A stretch of 34,596 nt of DNA from IMG/VR virus record IMGVR_UViG_2657244943_000010, one strand, 5' to 3'. Below, piece by piece: positions 1,800-34,596 of the stretch. The translations under genes and the position numbers were made by a program. Source of the DNA: a virus (taxonomy: Duplodnaviria > Heunggongvirae > Uroviricota > Caudoviricetes). The notes beneath the pieces are model-generated. The model worked only from the letters and a program-made list of their open reading frames with translations, was not told the origin of the DNA and made no database searches. Every line of letters starts with the position of its first letter. The first letter of the stretch is position 1.

Positions 1800-2141
1800 A
1801 TGAAACAGCAACGTAATTCACGCTTTCGTAATGGTGCTGAACGCCACGCTAACCGTTTCGCTACCAGTGCATCACGCAGCAACATCCGCTACAGCCTGAG
1901 TGATACACACGCAACGCCGGATGGCTACCCAGTAAAACAAATCGGCGAGCATGCCTGGCTGATTGAGAAAGCTGGAATCGTGGTCCACAAATGCCCACGC
2001 AATCCGTTTACCGGAAACCGCATTTTTGCATTGAGCTGCGGCGACAATCAATTCGGGCAGGATTTCACATTATACGAAGCACTTCGCACGGTTGATCGTC
2101 TGCTGCGTGGGCAAAGTTTTATTAAACAGGCTGATTTATAA
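1800..2141 (+). CDS. Hypothetical early-operon protein (113 aa)
   Basis: ORF with GGGAG RBS, tightly packed after cox; no family confidently recognised. Confidence 0.6.
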   Translation: MKQQRNSRFRNGAERHANRFATSASRSNIRYSLSDTHATPDGYPVKQIGEHAWLIEKAGIVVHKCPRNPFTGNRIFALSCGDNQFGQDFTLYEALRTVDRLLRGQSFIKQADL

Positions 2142-2151
2142 CAGGTGCTTT

Positions 2152-2430
2152 ATGACCAAAGAGCATGCACAAGGTGTATTTATCCGTTTTATTGATTTTC
2201 GCGGTGAACTGTTATTACGCGCATCAGCCATTGACGGAGTTGTTCCATCCGAAAAAAACGCAGCTACTTACGTTTATCTGAACGGTACGCGCCTGACTGT
2301 GGAGCTTCCGTACCAGACCGTGCGAGAAATCATTAGCGAAGCTGAAAAGGCACGTCAGGTTAATGGCGATGAACCATATATCGAAATTATTTGTATGGAT
2401 TCAGAAGCTGAAATTCAGAAAGCAGATTAA
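2152..2430 (+). CDS. Hypothetical early-operon protein (92 aa)
   Basis: Internal ATG of track ORF 2092..2430 chosen to avoid overlap with the upstream gene; weak RBS. Confidence 0.5.
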   Translation: MTKEHAQGVFIRFIDFRGELLLRASAIDGVVPSEKNAATYVYLNGTRLTVELPYQTVREIISEAEKARQVNGDEPYIEIICMDSEAEIQKAD

Positions 2431-2441
2431 AGGGCGTTGCG

Positions 2442-2684
2442 ATGGGCAAAGAATATAAAACTCTCATTAACAAAGCACTTGAACGATTTTATTTTCGCTT
2501 AAGTGCATCAGGCGATCATGCTGAACGTGCAGCCCGTGACTCATTGACCAGGGCAATCCGGAGTTTGTATGACGTCGCTTTTTACGCTGATGATCTGGAT
2601 GCACTTAACGAACTTTCCGAGCTGATCTGTGCCGCAGAATGCGGGGAACATATTGAACCGTATAAGCTGGGGAATATTGCATGA
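2442..2684 (+). CDS. Hypothetical early-operon protein (80 aa)
   Basis: ORF with AAAGGG RBS; helical, charged composition. Confidence 0.6.
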   Translation: MGKEYKTLINKALERFYFRLSASGDHAERAARDSLTRAIRSLYDVAFYADDLDALNELSELICAAECGEHIEPYKLGNIA

Positions 2685-2794
2685 GTATATTTATCTCATG
2701 GCTTGTTCTGATTATTTCGGTGGCCTGCGCCATTGGGATTATGCGAATTATTCATTCAGTAAAAAAGATTGAACGCTTTTTCACTGGCGAATAA
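2681..2794 (+). CDS. Small hydrophobic peptide (37 aa), translationally coupled
   Basis: ATG 2681 overlaps the TGA of the upstream ORF (ATGA); translation MSIFISWLVLIISVACAIGIMRIIHSVKKIERFFTGE has one predicted TM helix; below the ORF-track size cutoff. Confidence 0.35.
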   Translation: MSIFISWLVLIISVACAIGIMRIIHSVKKIERFFTGE

Positions 2795-2880
2795 CAGAGC
2801 AAATAAAACCACAGGTTAAATAAGAAAATGTAAAAACAATCCGCATTCGCGGAGGTATTCGCACACGCCAAGGAGGCGTA

Positions 2881-3084
2881 ATGGCAATTAAGCATTTTCC
2901 TGTCGTTCGTTTTACCTCCAGAGGACGTGAATACGAAGTCGACGAACGCCTGATTACCACAATCGACAAACACCGTTCAGAAAAGGATGCACATCACATC
3001 TATCTCACTGACGGCACTTACTTCTGCGCCACGAATGTGGTGCGGGTGAACCTTATCCGACAGGTACAGGAGTCACGCAGATGA
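2881..3084 (+). CDS. Hypothetical protein (67 aa)
   Basis: ORF with AAGGAGG RBS 6 nt upstream. Confidence 0.6.
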   Translation: MAIKHFPVVRFTSRGREYEVDERLITTIDKHRSEKDAHHIYLTDGTYFCATNVVRVNLIRQVQESRR

Positions 3085-5706: not shown

Positions 5707-8529
5707 ATGACGGCAGAGTACATCAGGGACTGGCAACAACCGCGCCACGCAGTGGGGCGTGAAGGAACGGGGATCCCCGCTCCTGAATCCGCGCTTTCCT
5801 CCTGGCTGGATGCCTACCGGGTAGAGAACGAACGCCGCCAGGAAATGGCTGATGCGGCGTTCTCCGCCACGCCGCTGGGCAACCTGATTAATAAAAGCCT
5901 GGACGCACAGGAAAAACAGGACAAAACCATCACACTGGCAGGAGACGCCAGAAAACAGGCACGCGGCGCGGTGGATGAAGCCATGGCCTCGCTGCGCCTG
6001 CTGCCGTCCTATCTGCGCGATCCGCTTATTCGCCACCTCTCCTTCCTGCGCAAAAAACAGGAAGCCGATCGCCGGAAAGGCAAAAAGAGCTGGCAGGCGG
6101 AACGCTATGCACGCGGAACCCTGCGCAAAATATTCGAACGTCTGGATCGCACTGACGGACACTGGCTGACACCGGGTTATCGCTCCCTTGCCGGACGCGA
6201 ACGCCTGGACGATTTGCTTTACCTGCCGCAGCTCAACAAACACCAGATACAGACGCTGGCCACCATGACGGCGGCGATGTTCAGCAGCACCTTCGAAAAA
6301 CTCTGCGATGGCTTTGGCGCGACTGATGGCGAACTGACCATGGATGTAACGCTGAAGGCGTATCAGATGCTGGCCCGCATGGCGTTACACCTGCACGCCA
6401 TGCCTCCACATTATGACGCACTGACAACAGACAAAGACCGGAGGAACGAACCGGACACGGAGCTGCTGCCGGGCGCAATCCTCCGCCTGACCTGTGCGGA
6501 ATGGTGGAAACGCAAACTGTGGCTGTTACGTTGCGAGTGGAGAGAAGAACAACTCCGCGCCGCCTGTCTGGTTTCCAGAAAAACATCGCCCTATCTGAGC
6601 CAGGACGCGTTAAGCGAGTTTCGCGCACAGCGCGAGAAAACACGCGATTTTCTGAAAAGTTTCATGCTGGAAAACGAAGACGGGTTCACGATTGATCTCG
6701 AGACAGTGTATTACGCGGGAGTAAGTAACCCGGTTCACCGTAAGGCAGAAATGATGGCCACCATGAAGGGGCTGGAACTTCTGGCCGAAGCCCGTGGCGA
6801 CAGAGCGGTGTTTCTGACTGTCACCTGCCCGTCAAAATACCACGCAACAACGGAGAACGGTCATCCGAATCCCAGATGGAACGGGGCCACCATGCGCGAC
6901 TCCAGCGATTACCTGGTTAACACGTTTTTTGCGGCGGTCCGCAAGAAACTGAACCGCGACGGCCTGCGCTGGTATGGCATCCGCACGGTGGAGCCTCACC
7001 ATGACGGCACCGTGCACTGGCATATGATGGTCTTTGCTCATCCGGAAGAAATCGACACTATTGTGTCCCACACCCGCGATATTGCCATTCAGGAAGATCG
7101 TCACGAGCTGGGTGATGATATTACCCCACGCTTTAAGGCGGAGTACGTCGACGGCTCAAAAGGCACACCGACCAGCTACATCGCCACCTACATCGGGAAA
7201 AACCTGGACAGCCGTGCCGTGGATGGCATCGACCCGAAAACGGGCAAGCCACGCGTTGACCACGAAACCGGAAAATCAATGGCCGAGAGCGTGGAACGCG
7301 CCATCGGCTGGGCGCGCCTTCACCGGGTCCGCCAGTTCCAGTTCTTTGGCATCCCCTCCCGCCAGGTATGGCGTGAACTGCGCCGCCTTGCCAGCCAGAT
7401 GGCACGCAACCCGGAAGGCCCGCAACGGCTGAAGGATGACGCAATGGATGCGGTTCTTGCCGCCGCTGATGCCGGATGTTTTGCCACCTACATAGAGAAA
7501 CAGGGCGGCGTACTTGTTCCACGCAAAGACTACCTGATTCGCACCGCCTACGACCTCGCCGATGAGCTGAACGATTACGGCGAACAGAGCGTACAGATTT
7601 ACGGGATCTGGTCACCACTCATCGGGGAATCCTCCCGTGTGTGCACGCATCCGGATAACTGGAAGCTGGTAAGACGCAAACCGGAAGCGGAAGACAGCGC
7701 CCGCGAAAATGGTTTTGACCTTCAGGGCGGCCCTGCCGCCCCTTGGACTCGTGGCAATAACTGTCCCCGTGTACAGGAAACGGACAACAACGGGACAGAA
7801 CAGCCGGAAGAACGGCCAGCACCGTGGCCGCAGCTTCCTGACGGCGTTGATGTGGATGAATGGATGCGCTCACTGAAACGGCACGAACGCCGGGCGCTGA
7901 TGCGTTCGCTGCGTGACAAACAGGCAAAAAACAGCAGTGATGAAATGCAGAGCTGGACACAGAGCCGCAAACAGCAGCGGCCTTTGCCTGATAACCACGA
8001 ATTACTCGCTAAAGAATGGCGGGAGTCTGCCGAATCTCTCGGCCTGCATATCGGTGAACAGCAGATGCAGCACCTGTTACGGGGCGGCAGCCTGTACGTT
8101 GACGGCAGCATCATTGCACCGCAGGGATTTGAAATTGTACGCAAACCGGATACCCGCCCGGACAGCCGAATCACGCAGCTCTGGCAGCGCCTGAGCCGTA
8201 ATCACGGCGTAAGCAGCACGGAGATCCGCCATAACCCGGTCGCCGGCTATCTGGAGCAGCTGGGGGCATCAGACCCCGAAGCCGCCGCACGCCTGGCATC
8301 CACACTTCAGCAGGACCAGAACACCATGAAAACCCCCGTTACCGTGCTTTCTGACATGCTGCGCGCCATCCGTGACGCAGAGCACGCACAGAGAATCAGT
8401 GAAACCACTGAACGCGCCCACCACAAAGCAGACCTGCTGCGGGGTAGCCTGACCAGTGGAAACAAAAAACAGACAGAAACGGGATTCACAAATCCCATAA
8501 ATGAGCAAAAAACGCACCATAAAACATGA
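5707..8529 (+). CDS. A: Rolling-circle replication initiation endonuclease, P2 gpA family
   Basis: 940 aa; HUH-type motif HDGTVHWHMMVF and tyrosine pair SYIATYIGKNLD as in P2 A; long low-complexity C-terminal extension. Confidence 0.85.
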   Translation: MTAEYIRDWQQPRHAVGREGTGIPAPESALSSWLDAYRVENERRQEMADAAFSATPLGNLINKSLDAQEKQDKTITLAGDARKQARGAVDEAMASLRLLPSYLRDPLIRHLSFLRKKQEADRRKGKKSWQAERYARGTLRKIFERLDRTDGHWLTPGYRSLAGRERLDDLLYLPQLNKHQIQTLATMTAAMFSSTFEKLCDGFGATDGELTMDVTLKAYQMLARMALHLHAMPPHYDALTTDKDRRNEPDTELLPGAILRLTCAEWWKRKLWLLRCEWREEQLRAACLVSRKTSPYLSQDALSEFRAQREKTRDFLKSFMLENEDGFTIDLETVYYAGVSNPVHRKAEMMATMKGLELLAEARGDRAVFLTVTCPSKYHATTENGHPNPRWNGATMRDSSDYLVNTFFAAVRKKLNRDGLRWYGIRTVEPHHDGTVHWHMMVFAHPEEIDTIVSHTRDIAIQEDRHELGDDITPRFKAEYVDGSKGTPTSYIATYIGKNLDSRAVDGIDPKTGKPRVDHETGKSMAESVERAIGWARLHRVRQFQFFGIPSRQVWRELRRLASQMARNPEGPQRLKDDAMDAVLAAADAGCFATYIEKQGGVLVPRKDYLIRTAYDLADELNDYGEQSVQIYGIWSPLIGESSRVCTHPDNWKLVRRKPEAEDSARENGFDLQGGPAAPWTRGNNCPRVQETDNNGTEQPEERPAPWPQLPDGVDVDEWMRSLKRHERRALMRSLRDKQAKNSSDEMQSWTQSRKQQRPLPDNHELLAKEWRESAESLGLHIGEQQMQHLLRGGSLYVDGSIIAPQGFEIVRKPDTRPDSRITQLWQRLSRNHGVSSTEIRHNPVAGYLEQLGASDPEAAARLASTLQQDQNTMKTPVTVLSDMLRAIRDAEHAQRISETTERAHHKADLLRGSLTSGNKKQTETGFTNPINEQKTHHKT

Positions 8530-8569
8530 AGTGCGCGCAAAACAGGCAAAAACGGGATTTCAGAATCCC
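8481..8569. repeat. Two related palindromic elements upstream of parM (candidate centromere/operator)
   Basis: AAACGGGATTCACAAATCCC (palindrome 8481-8496, inside the 3' end of A) and AAACGGGATTTCAGAATCCC (palindrome 8554-8569, intergenic). Confidence 0.4.
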
Positions 8570-8605
8570 GTATACGGTTAATTAATCAACATAAGGAAAA
8601 TCGAC

Positions 8606-9565
8606 ATGAAAATTTGTATCGACGACGGCTCCACCAACATCAAGCTGGCATGGACTGAGAACGGCGAACGCCGCAACGCCATCAGCCCGAACAGTTTCAA
8701 GTCGGAATGGTCTGCGCCGTTCGGTGGCACGCAGCCCGCGAACTACATGCTTGATGGCGTGCGCTATGGTTTTGATCCGGTCAGCGATCGCTTTGTCCAG
8801 ACGACCGACACGCAATACCAGTACAGCGATGTGAATGTCATTGCCATTCATCATGCGCTGGTCAAATCAGGCATCACGCCACAGGAGGTGGATGTAGTTG
8901 TCACCCTACCACTGAGCGAGTATTTCGACACAAACGCACAGCCGGACATGGTCAACATCAACCGCAAAAAAGCGAACGTTATGCGCCCGGTGGAGTACCA
9001 GAACGGCGAGGCATTCACTATCCGTAACGTGCGGGTTATGCCTGAATCCATTCCGGCTGGCTTTAAAGCACTGGCTGACATGAGTCCGTTTGAATCCCTG
9101 CTGATTGTGGATTTGGGCGGAACCACGCTGGATGTGGCAAAGGTTCAGGGGCAACTGGCAGGTATCAGCCAGGTGTTTTGCGATCCACACGTAGGCGTTT
9201 CTCTGATGGCCGATGCCGTGCTGTCGGTGATGGCCACCAACGGTATGCGCACCAGTCACCACATCGCCAATACCATTATCGAACATCGCCACGATGAAGC
9301 CTGGCTGCGCCAGCACATCCACAATGACGCGCATTATGCCAGCCTGATGGCAGTTATTCGTGAAAAGGAGGAAACACTGAAACAACGCGTGATCCGTGCG
9401 CTGGCGGGTTTTTCGGGTTACGGGCGGGTGATGGTTGTAGGTGGAGGAGCGGAGATTGTGGCACCCGCTATCCGCGAAGCCTGCGGAGTTAATGCGACTT
9501 TCATCGCGGACGGGGTGCCACAGTTTGCTCTGGTTAATGGGCTGTACGCAATGGACAAGGAGTAA
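8606..9565 (+). CDS. parM: ParM-type actin-like partition ATPase
   Basis: 319 aa, AAGGAAAA RBS; N-terminus ICIDDGSTNIKLAW ... ISPNSFKSEW ... YQYSDVNVIAIHHALVKSGI closely parallels plasmid R1 ParM/StbA as I recall it. Confidence 0.85.
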   Translation: MKICIDDGSTNIKLAWTENGERRNAISPNSFKSEWSAPFGGTQPANYMLDGVRYGFDPVSDRFVQTTDTQYQYSDVNVIAIHHALVKSGITPQEVDVVVTLPLSEYFDTNAQPDMVNINRKKANVMRPVEYQNGEAFTIRNVRVMPESIPAGFKALADMSPFESLLIVDLGGTTLDVAKVQGQLAGISQVFCDPHVGVSLMADAVLSVMATNGMRTSHHIANTIIEHRHDEAWLRQHIHNDAHYASLMAVIREKEETLKQRVIRALAGFSGYGRVMVVGGGAEIVAPAIREACGVNATFIADGVPQFALVNGLYAMDKE

Positions 9566-9569
9566 ATCA

Positions 9570-9884
9570 ATGACGACACCAACCAGACGGATAAGTTTCT
9601 ATCTGAAGCCCGCCGTCGTCAAGAGCGAACGGGAGGCGTGCAGTTACCTCGACAGCCTGCCAGCCTCCGAACGCAGCCGCGCACAACGCGCGGCTTTTCT
9701 GGCTGGACTGGCTCTTATAAAACGCACCCCCGCGTTGGCGTATTCGCTGGCAGAATGGTCAGAAGACGAAATACGGATGCCACCGCTACCAGTACAGCCT
9801 GAAAAACCGGCGCAACCAGCAGCAGACAGCGCCCCCCATATGCAGCAGGTGAAAAAGAATATTCAGGCGTTTTTCCCGAAGTGA
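9570..9884 (+). CDS. parR: ParR-type centromere-binding adaptor
   Basis: 104 aa from ATG 9570 (AGGAG upstream); RRISFYLKPAVV ... YLDSLPASERSRAQRAAFLAGLAL parallels R1 ParR; 4 nt after parM stop. Confidence 0.75.
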   Translation: MTTPTRRISFYLKPAVVKSEREACSYLDSLPASERSRAQRAAFLAGLALIKRTPALAYSLAEWSEDEIRMPPLPVQPEKPAQPAADSAPHMQQVKKNIQAFFPK

Positions 9885-9898
9885 AAACAGGAGTAACT

Positions 9899-10186
9899 AT
9901 GTCCACCATTACCAAAGAATGGTTACAACGTAAAATCACAGAGTTTAAATCGTGGCGCGAAGACATCCCGTTCGGTCTTGATGAAGACGATCACAATATG
10001 TTAATCGCACTGGAAATCGCACTTGCATCACTGGAAGCAGAGCCAGTGGCATGGATGCACGCAAATAATCCTATTGGAATACCGGCGATAACAAGAAGTA
10101 AAGATGTTGCAGACAGCTGGCGCTCTAAGGGATGGAATGTATTGCCTCTTTATTCACTGACCCGCTCCATCAATTTATGCCATTAA
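9899..10186 (+). CDS. Hypothetical acidic protein (95 aa)
   Basis: ATG 9899 with AGGAG 6 nt upstream; lower GC than phage core; stop overlaps next start (TAATG). Confidence 0.5.
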   Translation: MSTITKEWLQRKITEFKSWREDIPFGLDEDDHNMLIALEIALASLEAEPVAWMHANNPIGIPAITRSKDVADSWRSKGWNVLPLYSLTRSINLCH

Positions 10187-10557
10187 TGGAAGTAATCATG
10201 ATGAAAGATAATTCCGGAAGCCAGCGTGCATCAGTTGCAGTTATGGTAATGATTAAATTTGTGAAACAGTACACCGGAAAGCCAATCTCGCTCCGGCAAT
10301 TAAGCAAAGAAACCGTTTCACTGTCATATCTGGAGCAAATATTCAGATATTTACGGGAAAGTAGCCTGGTAAAAGCCACACGCGGCCCGGGTGGTGGATA
10401 TATCCCAACAAAAGAAAATTACAGTGTTGGTGATATTGTCCGGGCAATGAAATGTTCCGGATTATATACACAGCACGTTATTCTGGCTGCACTGGATAAT
10501 ATTTCTTTAACCAGCCTGCAGGAAGACACAAATTATCAGTTGTCTGCCATTGAATAA
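10186..10557 (+). CDS. Rrf2-family (IscR/NsrR-like) winged-helix regulator, short form without the Cys cluster
   Basis: VSLSYLEQIFRYLRESSLVKATRGPGGGYIP matches the Rrf2 recognition helix and wing; only one Cys; gene is visibly AT-rich relative to neighbours; start could also be 10198 or 10201. Confidence 0.7.
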   Translation: MEVIMMKDNSGSQRASVAVMVMIKFVKQYTGKPISLRQLSKETVSLSYLEQIFRYLRESSLVKATRGPGGGYIPTKENYSVGDIVRAMKCSGLYTQHVILAALDNISLTSLQEDTNYQLSAIE

Positions 10558-10560
10558 GAA

Positions 10561-10606
10561 AACCCGGAACGGGTGCGCAAATTCTTTGTGCGCCCGTTCC
10601 GGGTTG
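10561..10606. terminator. Long GC-rich hairpin between convergent genes
   Basis: AACCCGGAACGGG (10561-10573) pairs with CCCGTTCCGGGTT (10594-10606); T-rich tract follows on the minus strand downstream of the ogr-like gene. Confidence 0.5.
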
Positions 10607-10625
10607 GACAAGCGAAGCGCGTCAG

Positions 10626-10883
10626 CTATCCGGCCTGCAACAACTCCAGAGCCATTTGTTTTTCTTCCGGACGCATCCGCTCAATCAACAGCTTTAACAC
10701 ACCATTCTCCAGCCCGCTGGGCACCAGTGTGTGCGAGTAGGTCAGATTCATCACCCAGGTATGTCCGCACTCGAGACGGGTGCAACGGTAATACACATCA
10801 GCAAACTGATCGGTTTTCCAGGCTGTTTTCTCAATCACTGCATGTGCACCGCAGCAATGACATCGCGCTTTCTGTCTGCGCAT
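10626..10883 (-). CDS. ogr: Ogr/Delta-family zinc-finger late-gene transcription activator
   Basis: 85 aa from ATG 10883 (GGAGG 7 nt upstream); CHCC ... CTRLEC cysteine spacing resembles the Ogr/Delta zinc finger; C-terminus longer than P2 Ogr. Confidence 0.65.
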   Translation of the reverse strand: MRRQKARCHCCGAHAVIEKTAWKTDQFADVYYRCTRLECGHTWVMNLTYSHTLVPSGLENGVLKLLIERMRPEEKQMALELLQAG

Positions 10884-10948
10884 TTTCCACCTCCCGGAAC
10901 AGCGTTTTACTGCCACCGATTTTACCCGCTCTTTCCCCATACCGCACA

Positions 10949-11983
10949 TCACTCCATGGGTTCATCAAAATCAAGAATAAATTTCACCTCTCCCAGTCGT
11001 CTGATATCCGGGTCGCTGTTGATCCCCTCCATAATCAGGCGGCGCATCGGGATAACCTCATCCCTGTAATATGCCTCGCGGGATTTCAGTGGGTCACCAA
11101 GCCCGGCCGTATTTGCGGGAATGATGCCGGCAAGTCCGGGTGGAAAACGGTGCGCAACGAGCTGATCCTGGGCACTGATGGTTTTTATATTCAGGAACTC
11201 ATCTTTTGTACCTGAATCCCCGATAGGGATCACCTTAACACCTTCTTTGTCTCCGCCCGGTATATTGATAAACATGGATTTAAAATTGCCCGCCCCTTTT
11301 GACGCCTCTATCTTTTTACGGAATTCCGCCTCGAGCTCGGGATCCATGTCCGGGTCAGTGGAATACAGGATATAACCAAGATGTGCGCCGTTCTTGTAAT
11401 ACTTGCGGCGAAAGCGGGTGGCATCCACATTCAGCATGGCGGATTCCATCCCGTGAATATAATCCGGGACACCGTAAACCTGCTGTTGCGGGTCATAAAT
11501 GGCCACGAACACCACTTCGCCTGGCAGGTAAACGAGATCTTCCAGTGCCGCCTGCACAATCACCGTGCCACCCTCGTTGTTACGCCGCAGGTACAGAGAA
11601 GGTAACGTATGCAGGCGCACCACCCGACCGAAGCCATTGCGCACTTTAAGCAACCCCATATCCCCGAATATCAGCAGATTGGTTACTGCTGCCGCCATGG
11701 CGGCGTGTGTCATACCACCACCACCCCGAAAACCCTGCATGATCATATTGACGCGCGCACGCAATACCGCGCCGTGATACGGTGCGATATTGGACAACAT
11801 GGCGAGATCCATGCGCTCAATGGGCGGCGTGTACCAGCCGTTATAGCCATCCCAGAGCGAGCCGTAATAACAGCCCCATGCAGCGACCGGTTCCGGGTCA
11901 CCAAATTCAATAAACGTCATTTTGCTGGCTGTTTTTTTTGCCACGCCATCGTGTAACACGGGGTATTTTTTCTTTTTACTCAT
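10949..11983 (-). CDS. Q: Portal protein, P2 gpQ family
   Basis: 344 aa, same length and leftward orientation as P2 Q; overlaps terminase stop. Confidence 0.9.
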   Translation of the reverse strand: MSKKKKYPVLHDGVAKKTASKMTFIEFGDPEPVAAWGCYYGSLWDGYNGWYTPPIERMDLAMLSNIAPYHGAVLRARVNMIMQGFRGGGGMTHAAMAAAVTNLLIFGDMGLLKVRNGFGRVVRLHTLPSLYLRRNNEGGTVIVQAALEDLVYLPGEVVFVAIYDPQQQVYGVPDYIHGMESAMLNVDATRFRRKYYKNGAHLGYILYSTDPDMDPELEAEFRKKIEASKGAGNFKSMFINIPGGDKEGVKVIPIGDSGTKDEFLNIKTISAQDQLVAHRFPPGLAGIIPANTAGLGDPLKSREAYYRDEVIPMRRLIMEGINSDPDIRRLGEVKFILDFDEPME

Positions 11984-13763
11984 CTGACAGGATCCATGTT
12001 GATTTGCGCTTGTGCTTATAGTTCAGGGGTTCATTACTTGCGGCATGAGCTATGGCAAAGAAGATGTCAGCGTGCCCGGTTTCTTCGCTACGTTCGGCGG
12101 TGAAAGTGACTTTATTGCCGCTGTTGGTGGATTCCTGACGAATGGCCAGGAACGATGCCGGAATATCCGTAGCTTCCTCATCCCACTCAATACGGTTGGC
12201 GTAAATCAGATCCATCATCTTCATCACCAGGCGGTTTTTGGATTCCACGCTGTAATGAATGGCCACTGTTTCACGGCGGGCAAATCCCTGAACCAGCTCA
12301 AAGACACCGTAGCCAAGACCGGTGACGTCAATGCCGATAAACGTCATGTTATAGCGTGCCTTAATGCTGCGGATACGCTCTGCCATAAACTGGAATGACA
12401 TGCTGCGCCAGTGGTGTTTTTCCAGCACGCGGAATCGTTCTGCCGCAACCAGCGGCGGTGCCAGCACAACAAATGTGGCGTTATCGCCGGAGCGCGCAGG
12501 GTCAAAGCCGCCCCAAACCTCACGGTTACCAAATGGCATGGGCTCTTCCGGATGAAAATCCTCCCACGTACTGACATCAACACCACAACGCACAAGATCA
12601 TCGAATTTAAAGACGCTCTCTTTGTCATCCACAAACACACACATAAACAGCATATTGAACGCTGTTTCGTTGTATCGCTCGCGCAGCTCGTTGATGTCAG
12701 CAAGGTTAAAGCCGCCGGCAATGGCATCTTCCAGCGTAACCACATAGCGCCACTGACCATCCGGACATTCACGCCCACCATCGCGCAGCTCATCAAAGGA
12801 CGGAAACTCAACCCCTTTTCGTTTTGGATCGCCTTTGCGCCATTCATCGCCAGACCAGAACGGGTAACCCTGGTGTGTTTTGGATGACGGCGTGGAGAAA
12901 TAGGTAATGCGCCAGTGTTTATGGGTGGCCATCCCTGACGCCACTTCATTGAGACGGCGAAAACCGGGGATCCACAGGTATTCATCAATATACAGGTGGC
13001 CGCTGTTTGACTGCGCTGTGTTACTGTTGGTCGCCAGAAAATACAGTTCAGCCAGATTACTTAACTTAACCGGATTGCCCTTAATGGGAATGCCAAACTC
13101 TGTTTGTGCAATTTTTACAATATAAGTACGGAACACTTCGGCCTGACGTTTTGATGCCGATAAAAATATCTGTGTGTCGCCGGTTAATACCGCATCTTCA
13201 AATGCCTCAAACGCGAAGTAATACGTCGCCCCAATCTGGCGGGATTTAAGCAGGTTGCGTACACGGCGGAATTTGTTTTCACGCAGGCGCAACTGATAAG
13301 CAAACAGTTTCTTCGTAAACGGCTCAAAACTTTCAGCAGTCAGTCCGGAAACGTCATTAGCTTTACGGGGGCGCTCTTTCTTACCTGCACCTTTTTCTCC
13401 GCGTTCTTCTTTTCCATAACGGCCAGGCTGGGGAATGTCCACTCCCATTCGCGCAATCTCAGCCATTCGTTCCGTGTGCTTGTTTCTGACCGACATCAGT
13501 TTGACGTGATGACCAATCAGGCGATCAAGCTCATCGTGTTCTTCCTGAGTCTTATGGTCGCGTTCCGCCAGCACAGCGAGACGCCGGGCGATAACATCTT
13601 CCACGCCTTCAGTATTAAGCTGTGTGTACCACTCAAACTTTGTCGCCCAGTAATAAACAATTCGCGGGCTGTTCAGTCCGAGCTTCTTTTGTATTTCTTT
13701 TGGTGTGTGCCTTTTCAGATAGAGCGATTTTGCAGCAGCAATCACCTCATCAGAATACGCCAT
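11976..13763 (-). CDS. P: Terminase large (ATPase) subunit, P2 gpP family
   Basis: 595 aa; N-terminus MAYSDEVIAAAKSLYLKRHTPKEIQKKLG and ATPase region LKSRQIGATYYFAFEAFEDAVLTGD typical of P2 P. Confidence 0.9.
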   Translation of the reverse strand: MAYSDEVIAAAKSLYLKRHTPKEIQKKLGLNSPRIVYYWATKFEWYTQLNTEGVEDVIARRLAVLAERDHKTQEEHDELDRLIGHHVKLMSVRNKHTERMAEIARMGVDIPQPGRYGKEERGEKGAGKKERPRKANDVSGLTAESFEPFTKKLFAYQLRLRENKFRRVRNLLKSRQIGATYYFAFEAFEDAVLTGDTQIFLSASKRQAEVFRTYIVKIAQTEFGIPIKGNPVKLSNLAELYFLATNSNTAQSNSGHLYIDEYLWIPGFRRLNEVASGMATHKHWRITYFSTPSSKTHQGYPFWSGDEWRKGDPKRKGVEFPSFDELRDGGRECPDGQWRYVVTLEDAIAGGFNLADINELRERYNETAFNMLFMCVFVDDKESVFKFDDLVRCGVDVSTWEDFHPEEPMPFGNREVWGGFDPARSGDNATFVVLAPPLVAAERFRVLEKHHWRSMSFQFMAERIRSIKARYNMTFIGIDVTGLGYGVFELVQGFARRETVAIHYSVESKNRLVMKMMDLIYANRIEWDEEATDIPASFLAIRQESTNSGNKVTFTAERSEETGHADIFFAIAHAASNEPLNYKHKRKSTWILSDE

Positions 13764-31678: not shown

Positions 31679-33372
31679 AATTGATACAACGCTGCATGAT
31701 TAATGGCGAACGGGTGGAAATTGCCGATATAAGCCTTGTTCTTACCCTGAATGCTGCCGGTCGTGGCTTCATTTCTGTTAACAATCTGTCACCCGAACAC
31801 AGCCTTGCCGGCGCAATGGTACAAATTGATCTCGGCCGTGACGGTGAAGCATGGCGCTATTTCTCCGGCTACATTGAGCGCGATCAACCTGCTGAAAATG
31901 GCTCACGTCGCCTTTTTATTCGTGAAGCGGCTGCTGTGCTGGATTTTGATTTCCCTTGCTCCATGCAACACCCGACGTTGCGGGGGGTACTCGATAATCT
32001 GGGGCGACAAAGCGGTATCGTTTTTATCACTCCGGATGCGGATTATGCCAGTATACCAACTCCCTACATCACCCACAGCGGCAGCGGAGCACAACTGCTC
32101 AGCCAACTGGGGCGAGCATTCAGTATCAGCGATTACGTCTGGCACCCTATGCCGGACGGTTCTGTATTTGTGGGAAGCGCAGCTGATTCACGATTTGCCA
32201 GTATTACAATGCCGGATATTCCGCAACAGTACACACTCGGGCAAAGCGGCGGAAACAGCATCGACATCATGTTTATGGAAACTGTGCGACCGGGCGTGAA
32301 CCTACCGGCCGGGCGCATTACCCGTGTAGCCCTCAACAACGAGAAAATGACCCTGACATGGGAGCGCCTTACCGCCACGGGTACCCCTGTTTCCAAATCA
32401 CCATTACGCAGACAAATGGAAACACAGTTCCCGGAACTGGCCAGCGGTACGCTACATACCCGGCTGGCGCGCGTCATTGCGCCAACGGAGCCCACCACCC
32501 TGGGCGACGTGGCCGACAGTTTCCGCCCACGCTACGCCGTCGATGTGCAGTTGCTTGATGAGAACGGCAACGATAAAAGCGACACGCCCGTTTACCCGGC
32601 AGTACCGCTCCCCGTCCCCATGGCTGGCAGTGAGGCGGGATGTTTTGCCTACCCACCAGCAGGCACCATCGTGGAAATATCCAACATTGAAGGACGTCCG
32701 GACAAACCCGTTATCAGGCAAATCTTACCCGCTGGCCATAACCTGCCTGATGTAAAGCCAGGCGAACAGCTGCAGCAACAGCGCGCAGAAGTGTTTCAGC
32801 GCGTCACGACTGACGGAAGCTGGCACAGAGAAACCGATCAGCAAATCAGGGAGCATTCAGCCAGACGAACCATTAACAGCGATCAGGAAGAACGCACAAC
32901 AACAACCAGAACAACAACAGTACAGGCAAACGACATAACCAGCGTTCTGGGAACCAGCAAGCTGATGACAGGCCAGACAGAACACATTACTACTGGTCAT
33001 TATGCGATCGCAGCCGGTGAGCATATCCAGATGGTAGCGCAGGATTTGCTGACTAAACTCAAAGGGGCGACATCCACGATTGAGCGCGACCTTACTGAAA
33101 ACGTGGGAGGCCGCAGAACATGCCGGGCGGACGGTGGTCTGGAGTTTACAGCCCCGACAGTATTTATTGGTCGCGGTGGCTCACGGGAAAAATCCGGACT
33201 TAATCTGCTGACGTTGTTGATTGATATTCTGGATCTGGTTCAGTTGCTGGCCACACACACTGCAAACCACACCCACAGCAACACCGGCGCACCAACAAAC
33301 AGCAGCGAACTTGCCGCAGACGCCAAACAGGCTACGAGCCTGCGCGAAAAATACGGTGACATTATCGCCTGA
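31675..33372 (+). CDS. Putative baseplate hub/spike protein (gpD-like N-terminus, spike-like C-terminus)
   Basis: 565 aa; last gene of the tail cluster, as D is in P2; C-terminal THTANHTHSNTG contains His-x-His motifs like those at phage spike tips. Confidence 0.5.
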   Translation: MKLIQRCMINGERVEIADISLVLTLNAAGRGFISVNNLSPEHSLAGAMVQIDLGRDGEAWRYFSGYIERDQPAENGSRRLFIREAAAVLDFDFPCSMQHPTLRGVLDNLGRQSGIVFITPDADYASIPTPYITHSGSGAQLLSQLGRAFSISDYVWHPMPDGSVFVGSAADSRFASITMPDIPQQYTLGQSGGNSIDIMFMETVRPGVNLPAGRITRVALNNEKMTLTWERLTATGTPVSKSPLRRQMETQFPELASGTLHTRLARVIAPTEPTTLGDVADSFRPRYAVDVQLLDENGNDKSDTPVYPAVPLPVPMAGSEAGCFAYPPAGTIVEISNIEGRPDKPVIRQILPAGHNLPDVKPGEQLQQQRAEVFQRVTTDGSWHRETDQQIREHSARRTINSDQEERTTTTRTTTVQANDITSVLGTSKLMTGQTEHITTGHYAIAAGEHIQMVAQDLLTKLKGATSTIERDLTENVGGRRTCRADGGLEFTAPTVFIGRGGSREKSGLNLLTLLIDILDLVQLLATHTANHTHSNTGAPTNSSELAADAKQATSLREKYGDIIA

Positions 33373-33530: not shown

Positions 33531-33636
33531 CCGCGCTACCCCCTCCAACCCGCGGGTTTCGTGTCGAAACAGTTTTTCAGTTTTCTGCCGTGCAAAAATG
33601 ACCGCCAGCCCGCGCAGCAACTGAGGGAAAAGCGAA

Positions 33637-33895
33637 GATCTGAAATTTCACGCTTTGAAATTTTTTGCAGTTTTCAAAGTGGTTTTTACGATCGCACAAA
33701 TGGCCGGAGCAATAAAACTGCATGATATTAAAAGAGTTTTCATACTTTACGCGAGACAAAAAAACGATCACGAAAGGATCGCATCAAACAACCATCAAAC
33801 AAAGAAGGCAGACACGGCGCGGCCTGCACAAAATTAAGCTCCAAAATAAAACTGAAAAAAGGATCGCAACAAGAAGAAAAGCGCGTAAAACGATC
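33637..33895. promoter_or_regulatory. AT-rich region with six GATC sites and five copies of an AAAA(C/G)GATC(G/A)C motif
   Basis: GATC at 33637, 33690, 33766, 33777, 33862, 33892; motif copies carry A-runs 5' of GATCGC/GATCAC. Confidence 0.45.
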
Positions 33896-33969
33896 GCTGC
33901 TGATGTGGCGTTTCTTTATACAAGCTGCTATTTGCGATATGCTGAACACATCAACCTGTGGAGTGCATT

Positions 33970-34596
33970 ATGAAACGAAAATCAAAGTCTGCTGCCATTG
34001 CTGCTATTACTACAGCTCTGACAGCATCACTGGCTCCGGTGCCAGCTAAAAGCACGATACTACCAACAACAGTTATTGAATCCGCGACACACGCTAGAGT
34101 GGTTTCAATGCTTACATTTGAGCATCATGATGGTCAGGTGTTTCTGCCTCTCGAAGAAGCTATTGAATATATCAACGGGCTGAATGACAACATGCGTGCC
34201 GCGCTCAATGCAGTCATTGAAGAACGACAGAACAGAGGCAAGGGAGCACTGTTTACTGACAAAACCGCAAAAATCATAAAAATATGCGAAGAGTCAATTA
34301 AGCAGCACACCCGTGTTAAAGAGGCTGTCAAAATTGTAATGGATCCGGATAACCTGGCAAAAATGTATCCGGATAGCCTGGAGCAAAGAATCGCCTATCG
34401 CAATAAACTGGTTCGTTTTGGTCGGGCAATTGCGCAGGGGGAGTTTATCGCTCGTGATGCCATCAACACCATCAAACGAAGCACCGCACCAGACAAAACA
34501 ACCAGCCTGGGCAATACGCTGTCTGACGGAAATGTGAAAGCAATGATTATTGCCGAGCATAAAAACATGGGACTCCCGGCACCGGAGTTTTCCTGA
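33970..34596 (+). CDS. Hypothetical protein (208 aa), possibly exported
   Basis: ATG 33970 with GGAG 6 nt upstream (track start 33958 is a GTG); basic N-terminus then Ala/Thr-rich segment; low-GC gene; stop TGA at window end. Confidence 0.5.
   Translation: MKRKSKSAAIAAITTALTASLAPVPAKSTILPTTVIESATHARVVSMLTFEHHDGQVFLPLEEAIEYINGLNDNMRAALNAVIEERQNRGKGALFTDKTAKIIKICEESIKQHTRVKEAVKIVMDPDNLAKMYPDSLEQRIAYRNKLVRFGRAIAQGEFIARDAINTIKRSTAPDKTTSLGNTLSDGNVKAMIIAEHKNMGLPAPEFS

Follow-up and report, generated by a model that had tools for sequence, protein, structure and literature searches.

What is the function of a small AT-rich insert behind the partition genes of a P2-like prophage, and do the two genes that it carries belong together? 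The insert was delimited at positions 9899-10557 of a 34,596-nucleotide stretch of DNA (IMG/VR record IMGVR_UViG_2657244943_000010, hereafter the window), a P2-like Escherichia coli prophage of the P88 type (Xuanwuvirus, Peduoviridae) in its integrated state. It encodes a 95-amino-acid (aa) open reading frame (ORF) followed by a 119-aa protein of the Rrf2 family of regulators, whose gene is called rrf2 below. An original prediction, made from the letters of the window, had described the two as a low-GC insert composed of an acidic protein and a truncated Rrf2 regulator, either mimicking host regulators or forming a module. As set out below, the second protein appears to be a sensor-less miniature of the Fe-S (iron-sulfur) cluster regulator IscR with relatives in many temperate phages, while the first gene reads as a chimera that came to lie next to it by accident.

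A family of short IscR-like proteins

The 119-aa protein belongs to the Rrf2 superfamily both by Pfam threshold and by fold. PF02082 was matched with an E-value of 2.5e-13 and 50.8 bits (cut-off 30), as the original prediction had anticipated, and the alignment is confined to positions 2-85 of the 132-position profile; with TIGR00738, the stricter superfamily model of NCBIfam, the score was 53.4 bits, under its cut-off of 73.3. The AlphaFold model (predicted local distance difference test, pLDDT, 88.4) was compared with the PDB using Foldseek, and the top 36 matches were all Rrf2 proteins, the best being apo-IscR (4HF0, template modelling (TM) score 0.72, E 1.6e-7). The recognition helix SLSYLEQ and the wing RGPGGGY are present, as had been predicted (Table 1). 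The protein lacks the full-length C-terminal dimerisation helix of the family (profile positions ~86-132); in the model, three short helices (88-91, 93-100 and 104-108) take the place of one long helix.

Sequence and structural model both indicate E. coli IscR as the closest characterised relative. Among the NCBIfam models, TIGR02010 (IscR) scored 59.2 bits, CymR 49 and NsrR 13.5, and a profile search against the PDB returned IscR (4HF0) at E 2e-22 and NsrR at ~4e-4. The cut-offs of the IscR equivalogs are not reached (TIGR02010, 59.2 vs 207.55 bits; PRK10857, 46.2 vs 275). By BLASTP, the protein is 40% identical to residues 10-86 of E. coli IscR, with SLSYLEQ and RGPGGGY unchanged. Its residues S43, E46 and Q47 align with S40, E43 and Q44 of IscR, which contact the major groove of type 2 sites, E43 also setting the discrimination between type 1 and type 2 sites (PMC5411485).

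The winged-helix fold, the helix motif and the wing are thus shared with the apo-IscR structures (PDB 4HF0, 4HF1 and 4CHU). In contrast to IscR, which has 162 aa, the phage protein is devoid of the C92-H107 ligand loop, of about the first half of the dimerisation helix and of the C-terminal tail, and its gene is phage-borne, AT-rich and away from the isc genes. The end of the dimerisation helix is retained (VLxALDxVxLxxL vs LTGFLNNITLGEL in IscR). None of the IscR cluster ligands (C92, C98, C104 and H107) has a counterpart, in line with the predicted lack of Fe-S ligands: the only cysteine, C86, is unconserved in a 19-sequence alignment of the subfamily, and no column after the wing of this alignment holds a conserved cysteine or histidine.

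A further point of comparison is CymR, which is controlled via its partner protein CysK. It is likewise an Rrf2-fold DNA-binding protein without an Fe-S cluster and gave the second-best family match (Foldseek TM 0.70; PDB 2Y75 and 3T8R). Unlike the shorter phage protein, CymR has a full-length dimerisation helix (chains of 129-143 aa), and the recognition helix of the phage protein is nearer to that of IscR, with a serine where CymR has a histidine.

The short form is shared by a whole group of proteins. At a threshold of E<1e-10, an exhaustive, profile-free search yielded 15 representative clusters, of which 14 have lengths of 95-123 aa; a word-indexed protein search gave almost solely the near-identical cluster, and the subfamily became visible by the exhaustive search. 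The protein falls into phrog_24072 (E 1e-47), listed in PHROGs as of unknown function. In the 19-sequence alignment, the invariant columns are S41, S43, Y44, E46, G63-Y68 and L99, which, except for L99, fall in the recognition helix and wing; SLSYLEQ is invariant or nearly so, and the RGPGGGY wing is invariant. The term truncated is therefore apt as to length but not as a description of a pseudogene, the short length being the conserved state of the subfamily. Between the E. coli and Salmonella versions of rrf2, there are eight synonymous and two non-synonymous differences. The resulting dN/dS of 0.07, followed by 0.11 for ParM and 0.22 for ParR, indicates strong purifying selection and marks rrf2 as the selected cargo of the insert. 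The subfamily consists of miniature IscR-like winged-helix proteins of enterobacterial temperate phages, devoid of the Cys/His loop for cluster binding and of some half of the dimerisation helix. Literature searches on phage-encoded Rrf2 or IscR proteins returned nothing relevant, and no description was found of a phage-specific, sensor-less, shortened IscR-like subfamily or of its early-operon contexts. A scan of species-representative genomes for the subfamily motif was swamped by canonical chromosomal IscR and gave one extra short homologue, in Enterobacter.

Genomic contexts and transcription

Homologues of the short Rrf2 protein are found on unrelated phage backbones, lambdoid and P2-like. 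In one context, the lambdoid early-left operon, the order is cI, small ORFs, Rrf2, recE and xis/int (Citrobacter phage Chris1 and many IMG/VR loci). In another, at the end of a replication module, a DnaC-like gene is followed by a 224-268-aa winged-helix protein, Rrf2 and a zinc-ribbon gene. In the replication-module loci L004 (1304-2032), L026 (3167-3973), L027 (3328-4002) and L028 (3309-3992), the 224-268-aa protein always precedes Rrf2; it has an N-terminal winged-helix-like segment (METVLDALKAMGKA...), and the zinc-ribbon protein after Rrf2 has ~72 aa. These three genes may represent a conserved trio.

In the prophage studied here, no terminator-like site was found on the plus strand between parR and the cassette, including the 14-nt gap between parR and the 95-aa ORF; two weak ones lie inside parM. 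The sole sigma-70-like match in 8400-11100 (9909-9936, TTACCA-16-TAAAAT) lies just inside the 95-aa gene and is weak and within chance expectation, a single match being fewer than chance would give; it would yield a transcript for Rrf2 alone. Given the lack of a terminator after gpA-parMR and a promoter match at chance level, the cassette is probably co-transcribed with gpA and the partition genes, which matches the early-operon position of the homologues. The earlier view of the regulator as one expressed from a prophage is weakened by the presence of homologues in early lytic lambdoid operons and by the position of the two genes at the end of the early gpA-parMR unit.

Proposed function and its alternatives

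Tentatively, we favour the reading that the short Rrf2 protein is an early-made, signal-blind DNA binder of the apo-IscR kind, directed at type 2-like sites that are probably located on the host chromosome. It would be produced early, together with the replication functions, because its gene ends the gpA-parM-parR transcription unit and its homologues sit in lambdoid early operons. Without a sensor, the protein would behave as a permanently apo IscR, whatever the iron, the oxygen or the demand for clusters. Since the base-contacting residues and the wing of IscR are kept while cluster binding is lost, sites of the apo-IscR type (type 2-like) would be its most likely targets. Binding at type 2-like operators of the host is predicted to fix part of the Fe-S homeostasis regulon in a 'cluster-poor' state; alternatively, the protein may block host IscR. 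The suggested mimicry of, or competition with, a host Rrf2 regulator is plausible in this form, with IscR as the specific counterpart.

IscR type 2 sites follow the consensus AxxxCCxxAxxxxxxxTAxGGxxxT. The window contains three matches to it vs 4.4 expected, and the 69 homologue-bearing phage loci contain 64 vs 76.5 +/- 8, so there is no enrichment in either. Neither the cassette nor the window holds an enriched IscR-like motif or a significant palindrome. A 10-bp palindrome at the gene junction, CCATTAATGG, was dismissed, as ~0.7 would be expected by chance in 700 bp (an estimate). The absence of type 2 enrichment in phage DNA, together with the absence of the gene from ~97% of prophages with the same backbone, favours host targets over phage targets.

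Several points speak against the proposal of an apo-IscR-like binder. The function is inferred from sequence alone, and the shortened dimerisation helix does not assure formation of the dimer that palindromic sites need. Equivalents of E43 and Q44 are also present in CymR, a binder of other sites; therefore, the conserved contacts are no proof of IscR specificity. The two consensus scans count against the proposal as well, as far as phage-borne sites are concerned. In addition, a promoter just ahead of the cassette is possible, the timing of expression being a deduction. Finally, the hotspot in which the insert lies gives a prior for an antiviral role.

In such a role, the cassette or Rrf2 alone would protect the lysogen, as old and tin do, e.g., by repressing early promoters of incoming phages. 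The hotspot is rich in defence systems (PMC9122126), and the sister cargos of the slot include a PDC-M11 and a HigBA-like pair. Furthermore, a 2026 preprint reports that genes without annotation at the corresponding main defence locus of P4-like satellites often turned out to be antiviral on testing (six of eight), and it predicts antiviral activity for many unannotated P4/P2 hotspot proteins (10.64898/2026.02.27.708500). We nevertheless consider an antiviral function quite unlikely: neither protein has a PADLOC match or an enzymatic or effector domain, no separate promoter was recognised for the cassette, and the homologues stand in early lytic operons by recE or replication genes, outside defence hotspots. 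An internal function, by which the short Rrf2 protein would tune either the lysis-lysogeny decision or phage genes such as parMR, ogr or the late genes, would agree with the habit of most small phage helix-turn-helix proteins, which act on phage promoters, and with the place of rrf2, which has the early operon on one side and ogr, the late activator, on the other. Moreover, Ea22-type neighbours are tied to the lysis-lysogeny decision of lambda (PMC7093339, PMC10834534). This explanation is unlikely, however, for a dispensable cargo that ~97% of parMR-backbone prophages do without at ParM identities of 97-100%, whose homologues are spread over lambdoid and P2-like backbones alike and for which neither a co-varying operator nor an enriched motif or palindrome is evident. 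If the protein were an ordinary phage regulator, the result would be routine annotation.

Another reading considered is a poisoning of host IscR by the short protein, which would form heterodimers with it by means of the retained half-helix, as the alignment of its C-terminal VLxALDxVxLxxL with the end of the IscR dimerisation helix would allow. This is improbable, since the most conserved columns of the subfamily are those of the DNA-contacting helix and wing, not of the C-terminus, which argues for DNA binding as the selected function. Returning to the apo-IscR-like binder, action at IscR sites would make it a clear example of a phage that has copied a host metalloregulator minus the sensor, and would give the phage a route to override Fe-S homeostasis signalling. 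In enteric pathogens, secretion systems and fimbriae are also under the control of IscR; among the carriers are several Shiga toxin-producing (STEC) and enterotoxigenic (ETEC) E. coli strains. A wider claim can be formulated, which we regard as rather doubtful: that enterobacterial temperate phages carry a dedicated sensor-less mini-IscR family that, made early, occupies type 2 (apo-IscR) operators of the host or poisons IscR, thereby uncoupling the Fe-S/stress regulon (suf, hya, fimbrial and virulence genes) from the actual cluster status of the cell, for the benefit of the phage. If true, a virus would here be mimicking a host metalloregulator after deleting its sensor.

The 95-aa ORF and the question of a pair

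The first gene of the insert matches phrog_660 (E 3e-18) and phrog_60 (E 9e-17) and no Pfam or NCBIfam family. It resembles the N-terminal modules of lambdoid proteins annotated as Ea22, EaA, DUF550 or DUF551, with 55-73% identity over modules to proteins annotated Ea22 or EaA (tblastn). These matches identify the product as an Ea22/EaA/DUF551-N-type mosaic protein. It shares the N-modules and the modular shuffling of the Ead/Ea22/EaA-type proteins from the exo-xis 'ea' region of lambdoid phages. It differs from them in its shorter length, in the lack of a DUF551 or DUF550 domain and in its location, which is in a P2-like phage and not between exo and xis; a likeness to the C-terminal domain of lambda Ea22 was not demonstrated. 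An 86-aa family that is frequent among E. coli prophages shows good conservation of the C-module (AEPVAW...GIPAITRSK...PLY), whereas the N-modules are swapped freely around an EAEPVA linker. The AlphaFold model (pLDDT 77) consists of an N-terminal helical hairpin and a small alpha/beta C-module, and a fold search with it gave no structural match (best E 1.1). The label acidic suits the N-terminal half (isoelectric point, pI, 4.4) but not the C-terminal half (pI 9.8), so that the protein is only mildly acidic overall (pI 5.5). Kinship with a 99-aa early gene of this prophage, the positional counterpart of the ead/Ea22-like gene in P88, was considered and rejected, as the two show no similarity.

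The origin of this ORF is evident from a longer form of the slot found in some draft E. coli genomes, in which genes of 137, 95 and 88 aa lie in this order between parR and Rrf2. The window is 99.6% identical to the longer arrangement (L011) minus 685 bp, and the flanks of the gap overlap in a 32-bp repeat. The 95-aa ORF corresponds to an in-frame fusion of residues 1-51 of the 137-aa protein with the C-terminal 44 residues of the 88-aa one. The gap and the overlap at the junction therefore identify it, by sequence comparison, as an in-frame deletion chimera of two Ea22/EaA-like 'ea' genes. No description of this chimeric origin was found in the literature. The case illustrates how P2-type hotspots are remodelled, an in-frame deletion between repeated 'ea' modules having made a new ORF. 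Between E. coli and Salmonella, the 95-aa ORF shows three synonymous and eight non-synonymous differences; the dN/dS of 0.72, based on small numbers, suggests weak constraint.

Are the two genes nevertheless a functional unit? The co-occurrence set comprised 80 IMG/VR loci encoding the short Rrf2 protein, 11 of them near-identical P88-type loci. A relative of the 95-aa ORF stands beside rrf2 in these 11 and in none of the 69 other viral loci, where a single weak match was found on the opposite strand ~3 kb away. Conversely, at least eight P88-type loci lack Rrf2 and have, at the opening of the slot, an Ea22-like gene whose N-module is 77% identical. Because co-occurrence is limited to one lineage and the Ea22-like gene occurs on its own, the adjacency is a lineage-specific accident of cassette assembly and not a conserved pair.

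The overlapping stop and start (TAATG) by which the genes had seemed coupled is doubtful, too. No Shine-Dalgarno sequence precedes the TAATG start at 10186, while ATG 10198 lies 5 nt after GGAAG (10188-10192), agrees with the N-termini of the homologues and is the start annotated in RefSeq. The genes are thus probably 11 nt apart rather than overlapping.

A two-component unit, in which the 95-aa protein would serve the regulator as partner, anti-regulator or toxin, could account for two adjacent genes of similar GC on the same strand that were acquired together, and some other short-Rrf2 genes also come after a small acidic, though unrelated, ORF. Such a unit is highly improbable and largely refuted. 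The co-occurrence is limited to one lineage of at least 94% identity, the immediate neighbour of Rrf2 in the longer form is a different 88-aa gene, and the dN/dS values of the two genes lie far apart (0.72 vs 0.07). The 95-aa protein probably has a role independent of the Rrf2 protein. Adjoining hotspot genes should therefore be taken as functional pairs only with caution.

The slot and its alternative cargo

The insert qualifies, by location and by cassette replacement, as cargo of the P2-like gpA-gpQ hotspot. This cos-proximal hotspot of P2-like phages, in which defence systems concentrate, was described by Rousset et al. in 2022 (PMC9122126), and the supplementary table of that work lists the exact arrangement and both accessions, without functional testing. 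The type of locus is thus known, and the proteins are both annotated in RefSeq and catalogued. The same gene arrangement occurs in RefSeq in, e.g., strain STEC313, with WP_000104418.1 as a hypothetical protein and WP_000974052.1 as an Rrf2 family regulator. Like the published cargo (old, tin and others; PMC9122126), the insert lies between the replication endonuclease gpA and the portal gpQ and follows the pattern of a low-GC, swappable cassette. It differs in having no defence domain or PADLOC match and in following a ParMR partition module; a PADLOC scan of both insert proteins and their neighbours gave no match.

The comparison of the slot took in more than 40 related IMG/VR and GenBank loci. 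All share a ParM of 97-100% identity; for ParR, identity drops to 53-66%. Between parR and the portal gene lie 1.06 to 3.5 kb, and the portal protein is either at least 92% or only 30% identical. This last split places the slot at a mosaic joint of the early and late modules. The slot can be described as a recombination joint between these modules, with the 3' half of parR as part of the variable zone (window 8606-11983; loci L095-L141).

More than ten alternative cargos occupy the slot among these relatives. They include a PADLOC candidate defence pair, PDC-M11A/B (E 5e-131 and 6e-51; L136/L137, 6475-7936), a Gp49/HTH_37 HigBA-like toxin-antitoxin pair (L113, 6674-7463) and, at a GC content of 0.39-0.40, a DUF4760 protein together with a multi-pass membrane protein of 280 aa (L119, L128, L132 and L003). 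Further cargos are a ClpX-zinc-finger protein, a Mom-like protein, an insertion sequence (IS) transposase and several Ea22-like genes. Of 5426 complete genomes of E. coli, 37 contain the Rrf2 gene, at no less than 99% identity in each case, and 1145 contain parR-type DNA; ~97% of prophages with the same parMR backbone have no Rrf2 gene. A second insertion point is located at window position 10626, between the hairpin segment 10560-10625 and the ogr stop. The Salmonella version of the prophage carries an extra minus-strand gene at this point (L007, 5946-6599), whose product is a 217-aa membrane protein with a weak DUF6338 match.

Gene order, borders and composition

The prophage begins with an integrase at 1-1023, followed by early genes, gpA and then the morphogenesis genes; the features around the insert are collected in Table 1, with the genes for Ogr, the portal and the large terminase on the minus strand.

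Table 1. Features of the insert and its surroundings (window coordinates).
Feature	Position	Strand	Remarks
gpA (replication endonuclease)	5707-8529	+	
ParM	8606-9565	+	StbA_N E 6e-82
parR, final core gene before insert	9570-9884	+	Plasmid_stab_B E 2e-24
Low-GC cargo insert, whole	9885-10560	+	GC 0.43; gpA-gpQ hotspot
95-aa ORF (WP_000104418.1)	9899-10186	+	ribosome-binding site AGGAG at 9889-9893 upstream
32-bp recombination junction, encodes EIALASLEAEP	10013-10044	+	
Short Rrf2-family protein, 119 aa (WP_000974052.1)	10198-10557	+	phrog_24072; alternative start 10186
Recognition helix S-L-S-Y-L-E-Q	10318-10338	+	equivalent of IscR S38-Q44
Wing R-G-P-G-G-G-Y	10381-10401	+	equivalent of IscR R59-Y65
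Hairpin, 21-bp arms	10561-10605		-43 kcal/mol, z -7.1
Ogr/Delta-like zinc-finger late activator	10626-10952	-	core flank
Portal gpQ	10949-11983		next after ogr; core flank
Large terminase	11976-13763		

The insert is a foreign, AT-rich, sharp-edged cassette and one of many alternative cargos at this slot. Its GC content of 0.426, compared with a window mean of 0.523 (standard deviation 0.041, 659-bp windows), places it in the lowest 0.4% of windows. The GC content at third codon positions (GC3) is 0.43 for the 95-aa ORF and 0.39 for rrf2, vs 0.53-0.65 in eight flanking core genes. The predicted low-GC, horizontally acquired nature of the DNA behind parR is thereby confirmed by both measures. 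DNA comparison with relatives bearing other cargo places the homology breaks at ~9874-9880, where the homology of parR stops, and at ~10555-10561, so that the interval originally delimited was essentially correct.

The hairpin behind rrf2 is conserved among relatives that bear other cargos. Since a U-tract follows on the minus strand only, the hairpin is the ogr terminator, and it forms the right border of the slot. An Rfam scan of 8400-11100 gave one sub-threshold chance match only.

Two other regions of the window also have a low GC content. The early-region stretch 2126-3035 is as AT-rich as the insert; it contains small ORFs (112, 80 and 67 aa) and may be a second slot for accessory genes. 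The region 33626-34335 lies past the last phage gene (end at 33372), with an ORF from 33958 that leaves the window, and is probably the prophage-host junction or another island. Lastly, two 34-nt direct repeats (8466-8499 and 8539-8572) are placed across the end of gpA and the intergenic region between gpA and parM. Each contains the palindrome ACGGGATT-N4-AATCCC(G/A)T; their probable role is that of ParR binding sites of the parC type, or else of terminators, in a type II (ParMR) partition cassette.

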